From the IMG/VR virus record IMGVR_UViG_2695420739_000008, positions 1 through 7,991 of that record: a stretch of DNA of 7,991 nucleotides. One strand, written 5' to 3'. The stretch's first letter is position 1. Each line of letters begins with the position of its first letter. Source of the stretch: a virus. Taxonomy: Duplodnaviria > Heunggongvirae > Uroviricota > Caudoviricetes. The position numbers and the translations under genes are program-made. Positions 1 to 7,991 of this stretch are shown here, one piece after another. The notes under the pieces are model-generated. The model searched no databases. It was not told where the DNA came from and saw only the letters and a program-made list of their open reading frames with translations.

Positions 1-15
1 TAAGTGAATAAAAGT

Positions 16-58
16 AAAAACCCCGTTTGTTGGCACCAAGCGGGGTTTTGTGTTTCTG
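16..58 (+). terminator. Putative rho-independent terminator (tR'-like position upstream of the lysis-type genes)
   Basis: Seen in sequence: stem CCCCG (21-25) / CGGGG (41-45), extendable by the A-run 16-20 against the T-run 46-49, followed by TTTTGTGTTTCTG. The loop is long (15 nt), so this is not a textbook terminator. Confidence 0.4.
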
Positions 59-82
59 ACCTTGAGTAAGGCAAGGGAGAAC

Positions 83-265
83 ATGGCGAAGTATAAACGA
101 ATTCTGTTGAGGTTGACCATGAAAAACGGCCTTGAACTGAAAGCGCCTGTAACTGATGACATCAGCAGAGCACTGGCTTTTGCCATTAAGTGGGTGGCGG
201 TCGGTGTTGCTGTGTCCCCGATGCTGTATGGGCTGGCAAAACTGGTCATTGCGTTGAAATCGTGA
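83..265 (+). CDS. Hypothetical small protein (60 aa) with a basic N-terminus and a C-terminal hydrophobic segment
   Basis: ATG at 83 preceded by AAGGGAGA (short spacer); the tool ORF 50..265 is the same frame from an upstream GTG. The product [11 protein letters not shown]...[29 protein letters not shown] has one long hydrophobic stretch. It sits where a holin would be, but I do not recognise it as lambda S or S21. Confidence 0.45.
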
Positions 266-279
266 AGGGAGGATTAAGC

Positions 280-411
280 ATGTCAGACAAACTCATAACG
301 CTGGCGAAGATCCTCTGTGTAATTGTCGGCATTTCATTTTCACTAATGCTGGTTGCTCTTTTTCTTTCCATGGCCTGGATGATGTTGTCTTCGTCGGGGT
401 TGCTGGGGTGA
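280..411 (+). CDS. Hypothetical single-pass membrane peptide (43 aa)
   Basis: Strong SD AAGGGAGGA (266-274) 5 nt before ATG 280. Product [43 protein letters not shown] has a charged N-terminus and a roughly 26-residue hydrophobic core. Its stop TGA (409-411) overlaps an in-frame GTG (408) of the downstream Rz frame (GTGA). It occupies the endolysin position but is not an endolysin. Confidence 0.5.
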
Positions 412-422
412 ACATAAACCGA

Positions 423-881
423 ATGCTTTCCGCGTTTATCGTTATTCTGCTGGTGGCCTGTGGTGCGCTGTGGATGGCAACAGACCATTACCGTGATAAC
501 GCGATTACCTACAAAGCGCAGCGCGATAACAAAGCCAGTGAACTGAAGCTGGCGAACGCAACCATTACTGATATGCAGGTGCGCCAGCGCGATGTTGCTG
601 CGCTCGATGCAAAATACTCGAGGGAATTAGCCGATGCGAGAGCTGAAAATGAAACTCTTCGCGCTGACGTTGCCGCTGGTCGTAAGCGCCTGCGGATCAA
701 CGCCACCTGTCCAGGCTCCGTGCGTGAAGCCCCCACCACCTCCGGCGTGGATAATGCAACCGGCCCCCGACTGGCAGACACCGCTGAACGGGATTATTTC
801 ACCCTCAGAGAGCGGCTGATGACGATGCACAAGCAACTGGAAGGGGCACAGGAATATATCCGTACTCAGTGCCTGAAATAA
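423..881 (+). CDS. Rz: Rz-type i-spanin (inner-membrane spanin subunit), copy A
   Basis: Translation ...[44 protein letters not shown]...[37 protein letters not shown] closely matches lambda Rz as I recall it: N-terminal TM segment, coiled-coil region, conserved C-terminal Cys. The start may instead be the GTG at 408. Confidence 0.9.
634..819 (+). CDS. Rz1: Rz1-type o-spanin lipoprotein embedded in the +1 frame of Rz, copy A
   Basis: Embedded out-of-frame ORF with signal peptide and lipobox (LVVSAC), proline-rich mature part [30 protein letters not shown], nearly identical to lambda Rz1 as recalled. Confidence 0.85.
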
Positions 882-889
882 GTTTTGTT

Positions 890-1080
890 GATGCGCCGTA
901 TCGTCGCTGTATTCCCTCATTAACAGAGACCGCAGCCCGACAGGGAGACTCCTCTGCGCGAGTGTGCGGGGATAATCAAAAACGATACACACCGGGGTTT
1001 ACCGTGTTAACGGAGCGCGGCGTTGTCCCCTCATAGTCGCCTGTCCGGTGCGATGGTGGAAGAAGCCGGATGTTTATCAC
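890..1080. repeat. Conserved noncoding block downstream of the spanin genes, copy A (paralog of 7061-7250)
   Basis: About 80% identical to 7061-7250 by eye, with small indels (for example CGGGG-TTT versus CGGGTTTTT). No ORF is conserved between the two copies, so it is probably non-coding. Confidence 0.6.
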
Positions 1081-1231
1081 TATTAATTGATGACACAGAA
1101 ATGGATTCATTGAATTTCAGCACGTTTTTGTATTCGTGTTATTGAACATCTGTTTATTTTACTTTTAACATATTGATAATAAAAAGAGCTGTAAATCTTT
1201 AGATGAGTCGATTTTGTCCGGGGAAGTTCAA

Positions 1232-1372
1232 ATGGATTTTATGCTGACGGTTTCTGGTGTGGTTATCCTGTCCATTGCTTATATTGCAGATAAATATGGC
1301 TGCCATTTGTTATCACGTATTGGCGCTTATTGTTCGTTGATGCTGATTTTCTCGTCGCTTTTTTTTGAGTAA
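1232..1372 (+). CDS. Possible small hydrophobic peptide (46 aa); may be non-coding
   Basis: ATG 1232 preceded by GGGGAAG; product MDFMLTVSGVVILSIAYIADKYGCHLLSRIGAYCSLMLIFSSLFFE. Lies in an AT-rich block with promoter-like TTGAAC and TG-A-TAAT elements upstream (1142-1182). It is below the ORF-track length cut-off and there is no homology evidence. Confidence 0.25.
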   Translation: MDFMLTVSGVVILSIAYIADKYGCHLLSRIGAYCSLMLIFSSLFFE

Positions 1373-1504
1373 GTTATATTAATTATAACAAATAATTTTC
1401 TGTGTTATTTTTTCAGGCTATCCCGTCAGAGGGGAAGCCTGTACTGCCGGGGAGCGAATGGAAAACTGATGTGTCCGGTAACTGCGTGTTCTGTGAACAC
1501 CATG

Positions 1505-1690
1505 TTACTTAATTATGTAATTCATACCCGAATTCTCTGTTGACAGCCTTCTTCTGCAGGCTTCAATAACCCACGCTGAAAAGTTTCCTGAACCTTTCAG
1601 ATCAAGAGCGATGTTAATTTGTTCAATCATCTGGTTTGGAAATCGGATGTTGCGGGTTGTTGTTCTGCGGGTTCTGTTCTTTGATGACAT
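1505..1690 (-). CDS. Small Arc/MetJ-like ribbon-helix-helix DNA-binding protein (61 aa), putative
   Basis: Minus-strand ORF with SD GGGGA 6 nt before the ATG. Product MSSKNRTRRTTTRNIRFPNQMIEQINIALDLKGSGNFSAWVIEACRRRL... has a basic N-terminal tail, a beta-strand-like NIRFP, and two helices, which resembles the Arc motif (FNLRWP...) as I recall it. This is the only gene in the window on the opposite strand. Confidence 0.45.
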   Translation of the reverse strand: MSSKNRTRRTTTRNIRFPNQMIEQINIALDLKGSGNFSAWVIEACRRRLSTENSGMNYIIK

Positions 1691-1752
1691 AATGTTTCCC
1701 CATATTCAGTGTTGCTGATTTGTATTATCTGAAGTTGCTTTTACGTTAATTT

Positions 1753-1783
1753 GACGCAGATCAATTAATACGATACCTGCGTC
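1753..1783. promoter_or_regulatory. Inverted repeat GACGCAG-N17-CTGCGTC upstream of the minus-strand RHH gene (candidate operator)
   Basis: Perfect 7-bp inverted repeat (1753-1759 and 1777-1783) with an AT-rich spacer containing ATTAAT, 60-95 nt upstream of the RHH start codon on the minus strand. Confidence 0.3.
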
Positions 1784-1866
1784 ATAATTGATTATTTCTC
1801 GTGGTTTGATGGCGTACACACATGTTGTGATAAACCTTATATAGATGATAATCATTATCATTTCGT

Positions 1867-2291
1867 GGGTCCTTTCCGGCGATCCGACCGGTTACGGGGC
1901 GGCGACCTCGCGGGTTTTCGCTATTTATGAAAATTTTCCGGGAACCATGTCCGGTTTCTCTTCAAGTTAACTATATGAAAAATATAAAAACAGGTCTTCT
2001 GTGAACCGGACATGCACAAAAAATAGACATGTAAGCCGGACATGACCGGTTTTGTTGTGATTGTGAGGTGAGAGTTTTTGCGAGGTGAGGAGTGGCTACG
2101 CAGACTGAAGTTGCCAGGCATTTAAGTCTGACCGATCGCCAGCTTCGCAGATTGCAGAAATTGCCGGGTGCCCCGATATCAAATAAGCGAGGGCAACTGG
2201 ATCTGGATGCCTGGCGCGATTTTTACATATCGTATCTGAGGAGAAGTAAAAACGATGTGCCTGATGGCGATAGCGAAGACGACTATGAGGA
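1867..2291 (+). repeat. 425-bp direct repeat, copy A (cos site plus 5' 200 nt of the terminase small-subunit gene)
   Basis: Matches 7329-7753 at a constant offset of 5,462 bp with 5 mismatches (1881, 1889, 2016, 2025, 2035) by direct reading. Sequences diverge immediately outside both boundaries. Confidence 0.9.
1875..2053 (+). other. Lambda-type cos site, copy A: cosQ, cosN (1897-1908) and cosB with R3 (1946-1956, inverted), AT-rich IHF-like I1, R2 (2004-2014), R1 (2034-2044)
   Basis: GTTACG|GGGCGGCGACCT|CGCGGGTTTTCGCTATTTATGAAAATTTTCCGG matches the joined right and left ends of lambda DNA as I recall them. Three copies of a CCGGACATG-type element, one inverted, flank an A/T-rich segment, as in lambda cosB. 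Confidence 0.8.
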
Positions 2292-2352
2292 ACGCATGGC
2301 GCGGCCTTTTTTTTATGACCTGCCACTGGCAGATGGTCATCCTGTGATTTGA
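2092..2352 (+). CDS. Truncated terminase small subunit (Nu1-like residues 1-67, the winged-HTH DNA-binding region) fused to a 19-aa unrelated tail; possibly a gene remnant
   Basis: GTG start with SD GAGGTGAGGAG. The first 67 codons are identical to the gene at 7554. After position 2291 the sequence diverges and the frame ends after RMARPFFYDLPLADGHPVI. Confidence 0.65.
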   Translation: MATQTEVARHLSLTDRQLRRLQKLPGAPISNKRGQLDLDAWRDFYISYLRRSKNDVPDGDSEDDYEERMARPFFYDLPLADGHPVI

Positions 2353-2400
2353 TTCCGGTTCCGGCTTTTTAACTCTGTTCCTGTACACGGGAGAAATTCG

Positions 2401-4338
2401 ATGTCGATTAAACATTATGATGTTGTCAGGGCGGCGTCGCCGTCAGATCTTGCGGAAAAGCTGACACACAAACTGAAAGAGGGCTGGCAGCCGTTTGGTA
2501 GTCCTGTGGCCATAACCCCTTATACCCTGATGCAGGCGATTGCCGCGGAGGGGGATGTGACCACGCCAGTGGTTGTGCCCGGCACGGGGGATGGTGGCTA
2601 TCCGGGAGTGGTCACCACGGAGCCAGATTATTACTACGTTATTCCACTGGCCGGGCAGTCGAACGGCATGGCTTACGGTGAGGGGCTTCCTCTGCCGCAG
2701 ACATATGACCGTCCTGACCCGCGTATAAAGCAACTGGCTCGTCGCAGCACAGTGACGCCGGATGGCGCTCCCTGTAAATATAACGACATTATTCCGGCAG
2801 ACCACTGTCTGCATGATGTACAGGACATGAGCCGTCTTAACCATCCGAAAGCTGACCTGTCGAAAGGTCAGTACGGAACCGTGGGGCAGGGGCTGCATAT
2901 TGCCAAAAAGCTGCTGCCGTTTATACCGGCGAATGCGGGTATTCTTCTGGTTCCGTGCTGCCGTGGTGGTTCAGCTTTCACCACCGGGGCAGATGGAACA
3001 TACAGTGACGTGACCGGTGCCTCAGAGAGTTCTACCCGCTGGGGTGTGGGCAGGCCGCTGTATAAGGATCTCATCGGTCGTACAAAAGCCGCGCTGGCAA
3101 AGAACCCGAAAAATGTGCTGCTTGCCGTGGTGTGGATGCAGGGGGAATTTGACTTTGACGGAACGCCAGCAAATCACACAGCCCGTTTTACAGAAGTAGT
3201 GGAACAATATCGTACGGACCTTGCAGATATGGTGGGACAGTGCGCTGGTGGTTCTGCTGACGGTGTTCCCTGGATATGTGGAGACACAACTTATTTCTGG
3301 AAGCAGAAGAGCGAATCCACTTACCAGACGGTGTACGGCAGTTACAAAAACAAAACGGAAAAGAATATTCACTTTGTGCCGTTCATGACCGATGAGAACG
3401 GAGCAAATGTCCCGACGAACAAACCGGAAGAAGACCCGGATATTCCGGCATCAGGATATTACGGTGCGGCCTCCCGGACGTCGGCAAACTGGACGTCAGC
3501 AGACCGTGCGAGCCATTTCAGCTCATGGGCACGCAGGGGGATTATTTCTGACCGTCTTGCCTCAGCGATTCTTCTCCATGCAGGACGGACGGCTGAACTG
3601 GTGGGTGGGGAACAGGTTGTGATGCCGCCGGATGAGAAGCCGTCACCGGACACACCATCAACACCGTCAACGGACGGGAAATCAGTGACAACGCTGCTTT
3701 ATTACCGTGCAACAGAGTCAGGTGGTTTACTGAATCCGCAGGGATGGGGAGCTGAAGGAGGGCGTGCATTGGTAGTTGATGATGCAGGTGCTGCAGGAGG
3801 TAAGGCGCTGAGGTGGACCAAACAGACAGGAAGTTCCTCGTGGTTTATGCAGCATGATGTCGGTAATGGCGCAGACCTGCTGGAGAAGGGCGGGCTTATC
3901 AGTTGTCGTTTTAAAGTTGATGGCACACTGACAGCTAATCAGTACGCACTGGCGCTGTACTGGCCGGTTTCTTCACTGCCTCAGGGCGTCACACTGGAAG
4001 GTAATGCCGGTCATAACCTGCTGGCGTCGTTTTACGTACAGAGCGATGCCACAGACCTTAATGTGATGTACCACAAGGGAAATGCTGGTCAGAACACGAA
4101 GCTGGGGTCATTCGGCGCATTTGATAACGAATGGCATACGCTGGGCTTCCGTTTTGCCGGTAACAACAGTATTGAGGTGACGCCGGTCATTGATGGTAAG
4201 GACGGGACGCCGTTCATGCTGTCACAGTCACCGGTCGGCACGTTTACGGCAGACAAATTGCGCGTGACCGATATCACTAGCGGTGCGACATATCCGGTGC
4301 TGATTGAAAGTATAACAGTGGAAGTGAATAACCCGTAA
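2401..4338 (+). CDS. nanS-p: Prophage-encoded sialate O-acetylesterase of the NanS-p type (645 aa): N-terminal DUF1737-like region, SGNH/SASA esterase domain, C-terminal carbohydrate-binding-like region
   Basis: SD GGGAGA 6 nt upstream of the ATG. N-terminus MSIKHYDVVRAASPSDLAEKL...GWQPFGSP and the GQSN motif (Ser87, nt 2659-2661) are typical of SGNH-type sialate O-acetylesterases. The 645-aa size and the position immediately upstream of the S-R-Rz lysis genes match the nanS-p genes of EHEC Stx prophages as I recall them. Confidence 0.85.
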   Translation: MSIKHYDVVRAASPSDLAEKLTHKLKEGWQPFGSPVAITPYTLMQAIAAEGDVTTPVVVPGTGDGGYPGVVTTEPDYYYVIPLAGQSNGMAYGEGLPLPQTYDRPDPRIKQLARRSTVTPDGAPCKYNDIIPADHCLHDVQDMSRLNHPKADLSKGQYGTVGQGLHIAKKLLPFIPANAGILLVPCCRGGSAFTTGADGTYSDVTGASESSTRWGVGRPLYKDLIGRTKAALAKNPKNVLLAVVWMQGEFDFDGTPANHTARFTEVVEQYRTDLADMVGQCAGGSADGVPWICGDTTYFWKQKSESTYQTVYGSYKNKTEKNIHFVPFMTDENGANVPTNKPEEDPDIPASGYYGAASRTSANWTSADRASHFSSWARRGIISDRLASAILLHAGRTAELVGGEQVVMPPDEKPSPDTPSTPSTDGKSVTTLLYYRATESGGLLNPQGWGAEGGRALVVDDAGAAGGKALRWTKQTGSSSWFMQHDVGNGADLLEKGGLISCRFKVDGTLTANQYALALYWPVSSLPQGVTLEGNAGHNLLASFYVQSDATDLNVMYHKGNAGQNTKLGSFGAFDNEWHTLGFRFAGNNSIEVTPVIDGKDGTPFMLSQSPVGTFTADKLRVTDITSGATYPVLIESITVEVNNP

Positions 4339-4485
4339 GCAGGAAAAAAAGGCCGCCGGGGCAGGGAAAACAAGGAGCCAGAACCGGCGGCAAATGTCGT
4401 TATATCCAAAGCAAAACATGCAGGACACTTTTTTAACCAACAGGTATTAACGATGTCAACACCATATCAATAACCGGGAGGGATA

Positions 4486-4668
4486 ATGAGATTTGTACAG
4501 CTTATTTTATTGTATTTCTGCACGGTGGTGTGCACGTTATATCTGGTAAGTGGCGGGTATAAGGTTATCCGGAACTATATACGCAAAAAGATTGATGCCG
4601 CGGCGGCGGAAAAAATCAGCGCCAGCCAGTCAGCCGGAACAAAACCCGAAGAGCCTCTCATTTCGTAG
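4486..4668 (+). CDS. Hypothetical small membrane protein (60 aa)
   Basis: SD GGGAGGG 4 nt before ATG 4486. N-terminal hydrophobic segment LILLYFCTVVCTLYLV followed by a basic, hydrophilic tail. Confidence 0.5.
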   Translation: MRFVQLILLYFCTVVCTLYLVSGGYKVIRNYIRKKIDAAAAEKISASQSAGTKPEEPLIS

Positions 4669-4705
4669 CAACTTTCTTAACAACACCTTTCAACGAGAAA
4701 ATCCT

Positions 4706-4975
4706 ATGTCAGAAATAAAATCTCTGGTCACTGCTGAAGCAGTGAAGGACGTCCTGCGCTCTGAAGAAGTCAGAAGCGCACTGAAACAGCAACTCCGCCA
4801 GAATCTTGAGGCGCGTCTTGATGCTGAAGTGGATGCCATTCTGGATGAGCTGCTGGGGGGACCGGCTGCTCCTGAGCCTGAAGACGGCGCGGGTGACAGT
4901 GCTGTTTCAGATGGCGTTGTGTCTCAGCCTGACGGTAGCAGTGAGCCTCAGCCTGGCGGCGAAATGATGATGTAA
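4706..4975 (+). CDS. Hypothetical acidic protein (89 aa)
   Basis: ATG 4706 (MSEIKSLVTAEAVKDVL...) with a weak SD. Helical, charged N-terminal half and an acidic Pro/Gly/Ser-rich C-terminus. The tool ORF 4550..4975 is the same frame with an N-terminal extension that overlaps the preceding ORF. Confidence 0.5.
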   Translation: MSEIKSLVTAEAVKDVLRSEEVRSALKQQLRQNLEARLDAEVDAILDELLGGPAAPEPEDGAGDSAVSDGVVSQPDGSSEPQPGGEMMM

Positions 4976-5050
4976 CCATACGCAGGGGCTGTCGGTGTGA
5001 GCTGATGCCCCTCCTGTTGTTGTGAGCTTCCGGATTGCGGGAGACGGGGT

Positions 5051-5266
5051 ATGTACCAGATGGAAAAAATAACAACGGGTGTGTCATACACCACGTCAGC
5101 GGTGGGGACGGGATACTGGCTACTGCAGTTGCTGGACAAAGTCTCCCCATCCCAGTGGGTGGCAATAGGCGTATTGGGTAGCCTGGTGTTTGGCTTGCTG
5201 ACGTATCTGACAAACCTTTATTTCAAGATTAAAGAAGATAAGCGTAAGGCTGCGAGAGGTGAATAA
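5051..5266 (+). CDS. S: Class II holin (pinholin) of the phage 21 S family, with dual-start motif Met1/Met4
   Basis: 71-aa product [71 protein letters not shown] closely matches S21 as recalled: two TMDs and a basic C-terminus. Its stop overlaps the endolysin start. Confidence 0.9.
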
Positions 5267-5763
5267 TGTCGCCATCATTACGCAAGGCTGTTGCTGCTGC
5301 TATTGGTGGTGGGGCTGTTGCCATAGCGTCTGTGCTCATCACTGGTCCGAGTGGTGACGATGGCCTGGAAGGTGTCAGCTACATACCATACGAAGATATC
5401 GTTGGCGTATGGACTGTATGTCACGGACACACCGGAAAAGACATCATTCCCGGTAAAACGTATACCGAAGCAGAATGCAAAGCCCTCCTGAATAAAGACC
5501 TTGCCATGGTCGCCAGACAAATTAACCCGTACATCAAAGTCGATATACCGGAAACAACGCGCGGCGCTCTTTACTCGTTCGTTTACAACGTGGGCGCTGG
5601 TAATTTCAGAACATCGACGCTTCTTCGCAAAATAAACCAGGGTGATATCAAAGGCGCATGTGACCAGCTACGTCGCTGGACATACGCTGGCGGTAAGCAA
5701 TGGAAAGGGCTGATGACCCGTCGTGATATTGAGCGTGAAGTCTGTTTGTGGGGGCAGCAATGA
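5266..5763 (+). CDS. R: SAR endolysin (phage 21 R-type lysozyme with N-terminal signal-anchor-release domain)
   Basis: N-terminal Gly/Ala-rich weakly hydrophobic segment [19 protein letters not shown]4-lysozyme-like catalytic residues at E35, D44 and T50 ([17 protein letters not shown]). Overall match to R21 as recalled. ATGA overlap with the downstream Rz. Confidence 0.92.
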
Positions 5764-6227
5764 GCAGGGTAACCGCGATTATCTCCGCTCTGGTTATTTG
5801 CATCATCGTCTGCCTGTCATGGGCTGTTAATCATTACCGTGATAACGCCATCGCCTACAAAGAGCAGCGCGACAAAAACGCCAGAGAGCTGAAGCAGGCG
5901 ACCGCCACCATTACTGACATGCAGAAGCGCCAGCGTGCTGCTGATGCACTCGATGCTAAATACACGAAGGAGTTAGCCAATGCGAAAGCTGAAAATGATG
6001 CTCTTCGGCGTAAGCTTGATAATGGTGGTCGGGTGCTCGTCAAAGGAAAATGCTCTGTGCCATCCTCAGCCGAAACCTCCAGCGCCTCCGGCATGGGCAA
6101 TGATGCCACCGTCGAACTCTCTTCAGTTGCTGGACGAAACGTTCTCGGTATCCGGGACGGAATTATCCGTGACCAAACAGCACTGAGAACGCTTCAGGAG
6201 TACATCAGGACGCAATGCCTGAAATAA
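5760..6227 (+). CDS. Rz: Rz-type i-spanin, copy B
   Basis: [45 protein letters not shown]...[12 protein letters not shown]: the N-terminus is nearly identical to lambda Rz as recalled, with the conserved C-terminal Cys. The tool ORF from 5748 is a GTG extension. Confidence 0.9.
5980..6186 (+). CDS. Rz1: Rz1-type o-spanin lipoprotein embedded in the +1 frame of Rz, copy B
   Basis: [21 protein letters not shown]...[14 protein letters not shown]: signal peptide, lipobox (VVGC), proline-rich mature region. Same frame relationship to Rz as in copy A. Confidence 0.85.
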
Positions 6228-6259
6228 TTTTTTTGCAAATCACAAAGTCAATTTAATGA

Positions 6260-6282
6260 GCCTCGCGATGCGGGGCTTTTTT
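6260..6282 (+). terminator. Putative rho-independent terminator downstream of Rz/Rz1 copy B
   Basis: Stem GCCTCGC (6260-6266) / GCGGGGC (6270-6276), 7 bp with one G-U pair and a 3-nt loop, followed by TTTTTT (6277-6282). Confidence 0.5.
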
Positions 6283-6425
6283 ATGTCCGCAGTAAACGCG
6301 CATCTCACGCGCATATTAACGAGAGCCTTTCAGTAAGCGAGCCTGAGAAATGCCGTTATAGGTGGCGACCTCTCTCGGGCGGCTTTTCTGTGAGACAGGC
6401 TCACTTTCTAAAAGGTAAAGACGCT

Positions 6426-6950
6426 ATGAATAATCATTCAGTTATTCCAGCCTTCGACTTCCGAGAAATGGTGCAAGCCAAAAACGGAGAGGTCGTTACC
6501 ACATCCAGAAAAATTGCCAAGTACTTCGGCAAGCGACACGGTGATGTTCTCAGGAAAATCGAGCAGGTTAAGGTTGATTGCTCGCGTGAGTTTAGCCAAC
6601 GCAATTTTGCGTCGGCTGATTATATCGATGAGCAGGGCAAGGTTCGCCCGATGTACAGCCTGACGAAAGATGGCTGGATCATGGTTGTGATGGGGTTCAC
6701 CGGGAAAGCTGCTGCGGCAATCAAGGAGAGCTATATCGCAGCATTCAACTGGATGGCAGAGCAACTGAGCCGCCGCATGGCAATTGGCGAAGAAATGCAG
6801 CACCGCTACGCCATCAAAGAAACACGCTCAAAGCTGAAAGGTACGATCGGCAGTCGGTTAATGAACGAACGGAAGAGAGAGAAGCGTGTCCTGGCTGTCG
6901 AGCATGAATACATTTTGCAGGTGACACAGCCTGAACTGCTGATTAATTGA
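6426..6950 (+). CDS. rha: Rha-family phage regulatory protein (antirepressor-like N-terminal domain)
   Basis: N-terminal region ...FDFREMVQAKNGEVVTTSRKIAKYFGKRHGDVLRKIEQ...MYSLTKDGWIMVVMGFTGKAAAAIKESYIAAFNWM matches the Rha/pRha domain pattern as recalled. Start ATG 6426 has a weak SD; an upstream GTG at 6390 is possible. Confidence 0.75.
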   Translation: MNNHSVIPAFDFREMVQAKNGEVVTTSRKIAKYFGKRHGDVLRKIEQVKVDCSREFSQRNFASADYIDEQGKVRPMYSLTKDGWIMVVMGFTGKAAAAIKESYIAAFNWMAEQLSRRMAIGEEMQHRYAIKETRSKLKGTIGSRLMNERKREKRVLAVEHEYILQVTQPELLIN

Positions 6951-7060
6951 AGATGTCATTACAAAGCCTATCTACGGGTGGGCTTGATAATGGCTTATAC
7001 CCTGCACGGGATAACTTAACTGATATCCCTTTTAACGGATAAAGGTATTCAGGCCTGACA

Positions 7061-7250
7061 CATCATGCGCTGTATCGTCGCCGTATTCCCGCATTAACCA
7101 TGACCGTAGCCCGACGGGGAACTCCTCTGCGCGAGTGTGCGGGAATAATCAAAAACGATGCACACCGGGTTTTTACCGCGCTAATGATTCGCGGGTTTGT
7201 CCCTCATGCTCGCCAGTCTTGTGCGAGGGTGGAAGAAACAGGGCATGTAT
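7061..7250. repeat. Conserved noncoding block downstream of the lysis/Rha genes, copy B (paralog of 890-1080)
   Basis: About 80% identical to 890-1080 with indels. The ORFs the tool places here (7100..7432, 7197..7466) are not conserved in copy A. Confidence 0.6.
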
Positions 7251-7328
7251 TCAGGAGCGTGCGACCGTGGTCGCACGACGCTGGTCTGTCAGACATTGAA
7301 TTCATTGCGAATAAACCAGAACGCTTGC

Positions 7329-7753
7329 GGGTCCTTTCCGGCAATCCGACAGGTTACGGGGCGGCGACCTCGCGGGTTTTCGCTATTTATGAAAATTTTC
7401 CGGGAACCATGTCCGGTTTCTCTTCAAGTTAACTATATGAAAAATATAAAAACAGGTCTTCTGTGAACCGGACATGCGCAAAAAATGGACATGTAAACCG
7501 GACATGACCGGTTTTGTTGTGATTGTGAGGTGAGAGTTTTTGCGAGGTGAGGAGTGGCTACGCAGACTGAAGTTGCCAGGCATTTAAGTCTGACCGATCG
7601 CCAGCTTCGCAGATTGCAGAAATTGCCGGGTGCCCCGATATCAAATAAGCGAGGGCAACTGGATCTGGATGCCTGGCGCGATTTTTACATATCGTATCTG
7701 AGGAGAAGTAAAAACGATGTGCCTGATGGCGATAGCGAAGACGACTATGAGGA
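7329..7753 (+). repeat. 425-bp direct repeat, copy B (cos site plus 5' 200 nt of the terminase small-subunit gene)
   Basis: See copy A (1867-2291). Confidence 0.9.
7337..7515 (+). other. Lambda-type cos site, copy B: cosQ, cosN (7359-7370), cosB R3 (7408-7418), I1, R2 (7466-7476), R1 (7496-7506)
   Basis: Same elements as copy A. Differences from copy A are confined to two positions in the cosQ-proximal region and three in the R2-R1 segment. Confidence 0.8.
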
Positions 7754-7991
7754 GAAATTGCTTATTGCCAGATGGGAACTGACAGCAGAACAGGCTGTTA
7801 CACAGCAGCTAAAAAATGAGGTGTCAAAAGGAAAACTGATTGACACCGGATTCTGTATTTTTGCCCTCAGTAAGCTGGCAATGGCGTTATCCAGTACGCT
7901 TGATTCCATCCCTTTATCCATGCAGCGACAGTTTCCTGATTTAACACCGCGCCATCTTGACCATCTGAAAACCCTTATTGCGAAGGGGGCA
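7554..7991 (+). CDS. Terminase small subunit (Nu1-like), 3' end outside the window
   Basis: GTG start with SD GAGGTGAGGAG. N-terminal HTH-like region; C-terminal part ...IDTGFCIFALSKLAMALSSTLDSIPLSMQRQFPDLTPRHLDHLK resembles lambda gpNu1 (...ETAFCTFVLSRIAGEIASILDGLPLSVQRRFPELENRHVDFLK) as recalled. The ORF is still open at the window end. Confidence 0.85.
   Translation, partial: MATQTEVARHLSLTDRQLRRLQKLPGAPISNKRGQLDLDAWRDFYISYLRRSKNDVPDGDSEDDYEEKLLIARWELTAEQAVTQQLKNEVSKGKLIDTGFCIFALSKLAMALSSTLDSIPLSMQRQFPDLTPRHLDHLKTLIAKGA

Follow-up and report, generated by a model that had tools for sequence, protein, structure and literature searches.

A lambdoid prophage segment with two cos sites that probably arose when an internally deleted second phage was acquired at cos

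We analysed a 7,991-nucleotide stretch of caudoviricete DNA (IMG/VR record IMGVR_UViG_2695420739_000008, positions 1 to 7,991, here called the window) in which two complete cos sites of the lambda type lie in the same orientation, 5,462 bp apart, each followed by a copy of the beginning of nu1, the gene for the terminase small subunit. Comparison with related phages indicates that the window probably comes from a lambda-like E. coli prophage (A-type, the recipient) that carries, at its cos, an internally deleted cos-to-cos unit of 5,462 bp from a second lambdoid phage (B-type, the donor). Such an arrangement is a rare structural variant made by known, ordinary recombination, and represents neither a new mechanism nor a new type of system.

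The two cos sites are carried on directly repeated segments at 1867–2291 and 7329–7753, offset by 5,462 bp, which differ at exactly five positions (1881, 1889, 2016, 2025 and 2035 in the numbering of copy 1). This agrees with a preliminary description of the window, made from its letters alone, which had noted two same-orientation cos sites on a near-identical 425-bp repeat. A 55-nt pattern covering cosQ and cosN gave two exact matches in the window against 0 expected from shuffles. The subsites of the two copies are arranged as follows.

1867 to 2049, plus strand: cos1, with cosQ at 1867–1873, the cohesive-end sequence at 1897–1908, R3 at 1946–1954 (minus strand), R2 at 2006–2014 and R1 at 2036–2044
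7329 to 7511, plus strand: cos2, with cosQ at 7329–7335, the cohesive-end sequence at 7359–7370, R3 at 7408–7416 (minus strand), R2 at 7468–7476 and R1 at 7498–7506

Alignment with lambda (NC_001416, with its ends joined) showed that the identity of both copies to lambda starts at GGGTCCT, takes in the 12-nt cohesive end GGGCGGCGACCT and extends to approximately lambda bp 50, beyond which cosB diverges; lambda-type cosQ and cosN, the latter with GGGCGGCGACCT and the conserved I2 segment, are present at both sites. The cosQ motif GGGTCCT lies 30–24 nt from the right chromosome end, the same place that it occupies in lambda and in the curated record of phage 434. Each copy also contains three exact CCGGACATG elements resembling R sites, with R2 and R1 on the plus strand and R3, at bp 50–58, on the opposite strand, and the positions in copy 2 are those of copy 1 plus 5462. 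R1 forms part of a near-palindrome, and a search for CCGGACATG at up to one mismatch returned 11 matches, compared to 1.95 expected. Both copies thus show three R elements, one of them inverted, with R3 near bp 48–59, which is the layout described as a complex cosB in lambda-like phages (PMC4669245). Since the R sites of lambda have a sequence other than CCGGACATG, a packaging specificity distinct from that of lambda is suggested, belonging to a group common to many E. coli prophages. The preliminary description had given the order of cosB as R3-I1-R2-R1; the three R elements are borne out, but I1 is not, with no match to the IHF consensus WATCAANNNNTTR at up to one mismatch between R3 and R2 (1955–2005 and 7417–7467), a spacer that is AT-rich and aligns loosely with the I1 region of lambda.

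Whole-window and context searches, for which the genome set comprised 5,426 complete E. coli genomes, yielded no match to the whole window in one piece among these genomes, phage records or plasmids. Each half was found separately: positions 1–2291 form a single continuous 99.7% match to E. coli Z1323HEC0108 (NZ_CP148374), stopping at 2291, and positions 2293–7991 form a single continuous 99.86–100% match to draft E. coli contigs (L004, L005, L009, L011 and L012). The late region of NZ_CP148374 runs from lysozyme through two small open reading frames (ORFs), Rz, a small ORF, YlcI, cos, nu1 (169 amino acids), A and W to the portal gene, and the B-type late region in the draft contigs runs from Q through TfpB, DUF3927, NanS-p, DUF1378, DUF826, holin, lysozyme, Rz, Rha, cos, nu1, A and W to the portal gene. 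Both parents are ordinary single-cos prophages. The earlier suggestion of a chimeric junction between two lambdoid late regions is supported. Once positions 1897–7358 are removed, the rest of the window is a one-piece 99.8% match to NZ_CP148374.

Beyond the repeat, from 1866 leftwards and from 2292 rightwards, similarity between the two copies is no higher than background. The left border had been placed just upstream of cosQ; it is instead the first base of cosQ itself (GGGTCCT, 1867 and 7329), while the right border does fall in nu1 codon 67, the last shared base, 2291, being the second base of that codon. The diverged paralogous segments noted upstream of the two copies are likewise present, with 45% protein identity for Rz, 46% for Rz1 and 81–91% identity for a non-coding block. 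This gradient of similarity had been interpreted as the trace of gene conversion, a reading that the comparison of unlinked phages does not support. A-type and B-type phages that are not linked to one another show no homology to the left of cosQ and then 97.1% identity rightwards over at least 3,010 bp, and unrelated genomes carry either half of the window in one piece, at 99.7–100%; because the same profile already exists between unlinked phages, gene conversion is both unneeded and unevidenced. As judged from these alignments, the repeat starts at cosQ on a standing mosaic boundary, and its right edge exists solely through a novel junction at 2292/2293.

The parental origin of each part of the repeat was read from single-nucleotide polymorphisms (SNPs) at seven sites, two to the left of cosN (1881 and 1889) and five to its right (2016, 2025, 2035, 2181 and 2292), which were scored in 10 distinct comparison loci. 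With a slash standing for cosN, loci of A-context, in which YlcI flanks cos, read GC/GGAGG in five cases and GC/AGAGG in one, and loci of B-context, in which Rha flanks cos, read AA/AAGAA in two cases and AA/AAAGA in two. The window itself reads GC/AAGAA in copy 1 and AA/GGAAG in copy 2. To the left of cosN, the SNPs of each copy fit its own flank, cos1 having the G and C of the A-type and cos2 the A and A of the B-type. To the right of cosN, copy 1 (A, A, G) is the exact donor allele up to the junction, base 2292 included, and copy 2 (G, G and A at 2016, 2025 and 2035) has an allele of the recipient type, that of A/L001. Both exchange points lie within a 126-bp identical stretch that includes cosN (1890–2015), at the extreme cos-proximal edge of the long homology between A-type and B-type phages. 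From A-context loci, the left outer flank differs at 0/496 positions and the right one at 4/633, compared to 7–8 mismatches with B-context loci.

1897 to 7358, plus strand: unit U, the cosN-to-cosN interval of 5,462 bp, all of it donor (B-type) sequence
2292 to 2293: the single novel junction, with donor-allele nu1 codon 67 on its left (A at 2292) and the terminator upstream of nanS-p on its right

Unit U is identical at 5,462/5,462 positions to the B-type contig L004 (GCA_030510125.1, JAUKWW010000007.1), in two colinear blocks of 396/396 and 5066/5066. It consists of the left 396 bp and the right 5,066 bp of the donor chromosome, with the interval from nu1 codon 67 to the nanS-p terminator missing. 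Since the SNPs assign the stub of cosB and truncated nu1 (nu1') to the same donor as the module from NanS-p to Rha, the inserted unit extends from cosN to cosN. The proposal of a module inserted into nu1 was imprecise in this respect, nu1 not being the point of insertion. Neither of the reciprocal combinations of haplotype and flank was found in the complete E. coli genomes, where the best match to the context of copy 1 reached 99.2% and the B-left context was absent.

The junction at 2292/2293 is blunt, with no microhomology or k-mer common to its two sides, and the A at 2292 is the nu1 allele of B-context loci, A-context loci having G at this position. On the donor side, an intrinsic-terminator hairpin precedes nanS-p, and the break falls 5 nt into its left arm, 108 bp upstream of that gene; this hairpin, GGCTGCGC-ATG-GCGCGGCC followed by T8, is an annotated terminator in the phage 434 record. 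It is no longer detected in the window, where nu1 sequence stands in place of its left stem arm, and because the terminator is lost, late transcription would be expected to read through from nu1' into nanS-p. In lambdoid and Stx phages, nanS-p is preceded by a conserved intrinsic terminator, which separates it from a DUF3927-type gene (window 2293–2314; L004 5888–5914; phage 434, OL657226, 43343–43371). Phages of the L001-type and the L004-type drop from ~99% to ~65% identity within a few bp of the donor breakpoint, and we considered whether a natural mosaic boundary could have caused the break; this was rejected as a positional coincidence, since the breakpoint lies inside the terminator stem. 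A megablast search with positions 2150–2450 did not find the junction in the 5,426 complete E. coli genomes, 50,697 phage records or 72,556 plasmids, exact junction patterns of 22–29 nt were absent from GTDB representative genomes, IMG/VR and JGI metagenomes, and three junction-spanning ORFs had no exact match in protein databases.

We propose that two events could have produced this arrangement. In the first, an illegitimate, non-homologous deletion from nu1 codon 67 to the nanS-p terminator would have stripped the donor of its morphogenesis, integration and early genes, leaving, on a circular map, a cos-bearing remnant of 5,462 bp. In the second, a single exchange between donor and recipient would have taken place inside the 126-bp stretch at 1890–2015, either as a homologous crossover between a circular donor or mini-donor and the cos region of the recipient, or by joining at cohesive ends cut by terminase. 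Cos is a recombination focus in lambda, with which an exchange at the cos-proximal edge of homology fits. The deletion may have come first, with the resulting mini-circle then integrating, or the whole donor may have integrated at the recipient cos as a nested dilysogen and decayed afterwards, an order supported by the recurrence, in defective E. coli prophages, of rightward deletions that start inside nu1.

Several observations weigh against this history. Neither the junction nor the fusion ORFs turned up elsewhere in any collection searched, which leaves this record as the one instance of the molecule as written. The haplotype argument rests on seven sites in 10 distinct comparison loci, and the sites from 2016 to 2035 are open to short-read mis-phasing across the 126-bp identical stretch. 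The right outer flank is also four sites away from the best A-type genomes, a difference that marks the recipient itself as a mosaic.

One rival explanation is an assembly or chimeric-read artefact, in which two separate single-cos prophages, one of them possibly with a real duplication, were mis-joined through the cos–nu1 repeat. The repeat contains exact stretches of 126–256 bp, beyond what short reads can bridge, and the arrangement is unique across every collection searched; however, the repeat does not include the junction, whose two sides have no k-mer or microhomology in common, which means that mis-traversal of an assembly graph cannot produce it. A random chimera, moreover, would not connect two sites in one phage, both on one strand, so as to form a colinear, cos-bounded deletion derivative, and the A next to the junction at 2292 is the donor allele at a site that is not open to mis-phasing. 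We consider an artefact unlikely.

A single unequal illegitimate crossover, or deletion, between two co-resident or tandem lambdoid prophages, joining the left parent at nu1 codon 67 to the right parent upstream of nanS-p, would account for the one novel junction with one event, provided that the cos and nu1 alleles had already been shuffled in both parents. Lambdoid prophages are highly mosaic, and the cos–nu1 allele is not constant within a context, as L026 and L005 differ from their respective groups. Nevertheless, this explanation needs parental allele combinations that are exactly reciprocal, none of which was seen in the 10 loci or the 5,426 complete genomes, and it leaves as coincidence the 396/396 identity of the nu1' stub to the very phage that supplied the adjacent module (5066/5066); we regard it as rather improbable.

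A broader hypothesis holds that cos-bounded lambdoid phage fragments can be spliced into the cos of another phage through terminase cutting and cohesive-end ligation, which would offer a natural 'cos cassette' route by which lysis and nanS-p modules pass between phages, and that the 86-amino-acid product of nu1' might in addition bind R sites, bias the choice of cos or damp packaging. We hold this to be very doubtful. Still less credible is a selected two-cos design, such as a satellite-like or cassette element that hitch-hikes by means of its own cos. One phage-inducible chromosomal island (PICI), EcCICFT073 (PMC6739421), does have two cos sites, and unit U is bounded exactly by cos sites. 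Yet Pfam finds in the unit an esterase, lysis genes and Rha, and no satellite genes such as an integrase, replication genes or Rpp; the unit contains phage cosB, which PICIs lack; it is a singleton; and at 5.5 kb it is far below the capacity of a lambda-type head. Duplication within one prophage, with the cos–nu1 segment homogenised by gene conversion of the kind that the preliminary description invoked, can practically be dismissed: near-identity over 425 bp with weaker similarity upstream would suit it, but the halves occur separately and contiguously in other genomes with the same mutual similarity profile, and what ends the repeat on the right is the junction rather than the limit of a conversion tract.

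We next turn to the packaging behaviour predicted for a prophage in which the acquired unit is flanked by two cos sites. In lambda, initiation requires cosN and cosB, and termination requires cosQ, cosN and I2, independently of cosB specificity (PMC4669245). Both cos sites of the window should be competent, given that every subsite is present and that all alleles are found in intact phages. After induction, terminase could initiate at either site. Packaging from cos2 to the next cos1 would produce a normal single-cos phage from which the unit has been lost, and packaging that starts at cos1 would mostly run past cos2, at which point the head would be only ~11% full, and would retain the unit only when the head can hold the total length. 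Cos cleavage in lambda reportedly varies with chromosome length, as Feiss and Siegele are said to have found in 1979. Under lambda rules, the two initiation sites anticipated in the preliminary description would thus hold, but its premature termination site holds only in part, as a cos encountered after 5.5 kb would mostly be passed; the chief effects predicted are a choice between two starting points and, when packaging runs from cos2 to the next cos1, loss of the unit. We infer that the two-cos arrangement would be stable only as a prophage and lost in lytic growth, in agreement with its singleton status. The prediction that follows is that induced virion DNA would span cos2 to cos1, without the 5.5-kb unit.

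The two copies of nu1, each beginning with a GTG start codon (2092 in copy 1, 7554 in copy 2), differ in completeness.

2092 to 2352, plus strand: nu1', the truncated terminase small-subunit gene, taken from the ORF list; codons 1–67 and 19 foreign codons, 86 amino acids in total
7554 to 7991, plus strand: nu1, the intact copy, of which the first 146 codons lie in the window and the remainder past its end; Pfam Phage_Nu1 (9e-18) over residues 49–144

Only copy 2 corresponds to a full-length terminase small subunit Nu1, and its 169-amino-acid homologues precede gpA in L004 and L013. The nu1' allele is identical to that of the donor L004. Its 86-amino-acid product has no Pfam match, and the fusion has no record in protein databases and no full-length homologue in homology searches, the nearest sequences being other nu1 truncations. 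An AlphaFold 2 model of the Nu1 N-terminus (pLDDT confidence scores of 80–86 over residues 1–50) gave weak MerR-like winged helix-turn-helix matches in Foldseek, with E ~1, and a comparison by sequence with solved structures returned no match; folding of nu1' as a winged-helix DNA-binding domain is therefore only weakly indicated.

Deletions in other E. coli prophages also start within nu1, at codons 24, 71, 72, 74 and ~79, and join it to head or tail genes, and for this reason a hot spot at codon 67 is not supported. The break at codon 24 leads into the gpC protease region, and those at codons 71–72 lead into the lom/tail-fibre and gpJ regions. Independent deletions with their left end in nu1 (codons 24, 71 and 72) were seen in L020 (GCA_001277415.1), the P0001 loci (L031/L032) and the P0002 locus (L033), and nu1 is also broken at codon 74 in P0017 and P0018. 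Deletion close to nu1 appears to be a recurrent route of prophage decay. In the A-type locus L027 (GCA_048120925.1), the called genes pass from nu1 to gpW and the portal gene, with no terminase large subunit called, and this locus may be another rearranged or decayed packaging module.

A literature search for natural cos duplications found no directly relevant report. Emmons reportedly obtained, in 1974, laboratory lambda derivatives with two copies of cos, through tandem duplications spanning cos. The window resembles these in having two direct, complete cos sites a few kb apart and in the behaviour predicted for it, either cos being able to initiate and cos-to-cos packaging dropping the intervening segment. 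It differs in that the segment between its cos sites is a deletion derivative of a different phage, with 425 bp repeated and one nu1 truncated, whereas in duplications of the Emmons type that segment is a copy of the phage's own adjacent DNA; here, only the 425 bp are repeated, the lysis genes left of cos1 share 45% protein identity with those in the unit, and the unit matches another phage at 100%. Cosmid–phage cointegrates, which form via cos homology, provide a further parallel, as a small cos-bearing circle enters the phage cos by a single crossover and creates a cos-insert-cos structure with hybrid cos sites, fitting the reciprocal SNPs in the window; in contrast to cosmids, the inserted DNA here is natural phage sequence without a plasmid replicon. 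Tandem dilysogens and cos-to-cos helper packaging from the Feiss laboratory (PMC4669245) likewise place same-orientation cos sites of different lambda-like phages on one chromosome, but with about one genome between them, compared to 5.46 kb here, where most of the inner phage is deleted. The PICI EcCICFT073 (PMC6739421) is, similarly, a natural mobile element of E. coli with two lambda-like cosQ–cosN sites. It lacks phage cosB, and its Rpp redirects TerS, whereas the window has phage-type cosB twice and no PICI genes; unit U accordingly shows none of the marks of a PICI or cos-type satellite (an integrase, a regulatory or replication module, Rpp, and cos without phage cosB). The nu1-deleted lambdoid prophages described above (L020, P0001 and P0002) share with the window an illegitimate deletion that starts in nu1 codons 24–74 and removes morphogenesis genes, but theirs end in their own head or tail genes and leave one cos, while the deletion here extends to the nanS-p terminator and has a second cos downstream.

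If physically real, the window would be a natural counterpart of laboratory cos duplications and cosmid cointegrates, showing a lambdoid prophage caught soon after it gained a decayed second phage at cos, with the exchange points beside cosN. It also illustrates cos as a standing mosaic joint between lysis and morphogenesis modules, and how cargo, nanS-p and lysis cassettes for example, can be duplicated when deletion follows nested or tandem lysogeny. For annotation, the case advises caution, in that two cos sites together with a truncated terminase gene need not imply two prophages.

Gene identities in the remainder of the window were assigned with Pfam searches, giving the following features.

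408 to 881, plus strand: Rz i-spanin of the recipient (A-type) phage; Pfam Phage_lysis (6e-50), labelled 'lysis protein' in NZ_CP148374
634 to 819, embedded in Rz: Rz1 o-spanin of the recipient; Pfam Rz1 (1.8e-21)
891 to 1069: conserved non-coding block, A copy, with its paralogue at 7065–7242; 81–91% identity, 89% by MAFFT
1505 to 1690, minus strand: YlcI/YnfO (DUF3950), marker of the A-type left flank; Pfam DUF3950 (9e-19), adjoining cos in L013 and L019–L028
2401 to 4338, plus strand: nanS-p-type SASA carbohydrate esterase, 645 amino acids; Pfam DUF1737, SASA and DUF6645
4486 to 4975, plus strand: two small genes, DUF1378 (4486–4668) and DUF826 (4706–4975), by Pfam; both also in L004
5051 to 6227, plus strand: donor lysis cassette, by Pfam, with class II holin (5051–5266), lysozyme (5266–5763), Rz (5748–6227) and Rz1 (5980–6186)
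6426 to 6950, plus strand: Rha-family regulator, marker of the B-type left flank of cos; Pfam Phage_pRha (4e-28), with the exact protein beside cos in L016–L018

The exact NanS-p-type protein is present in many E. coli prophages. The non-coding block of ~180 bp (891–1069 and 7065–7242) occupies part of the interval from the lysis cassette to cos in A-type and B-type phages alike and is also found 3' of Rz in many Stx phages; it has no convincing ORF, and a search for structured RNA across the window, this block included, gave no Rfam match at E ≤ 0.1. A-type and H1-type prophages have, between the lysozyme gene and Rz, two short ORFs for predicted membrane proteins (50–265 and 280–411 in the window; 71 and 43 amino acids), which belong to no Pfam family and are labelled hypothetical in RefSeq. 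The AT-rich stretch at 1070–1500, between the conserved block and ylcI, holds a hypothetical ORF of 46–52 amino acids (1214/1232–1372) and is kept in the best-matching A-type phages (NZ_CP148374), whereas H1-type prophages (L001) have a PerC-family gene in its place.

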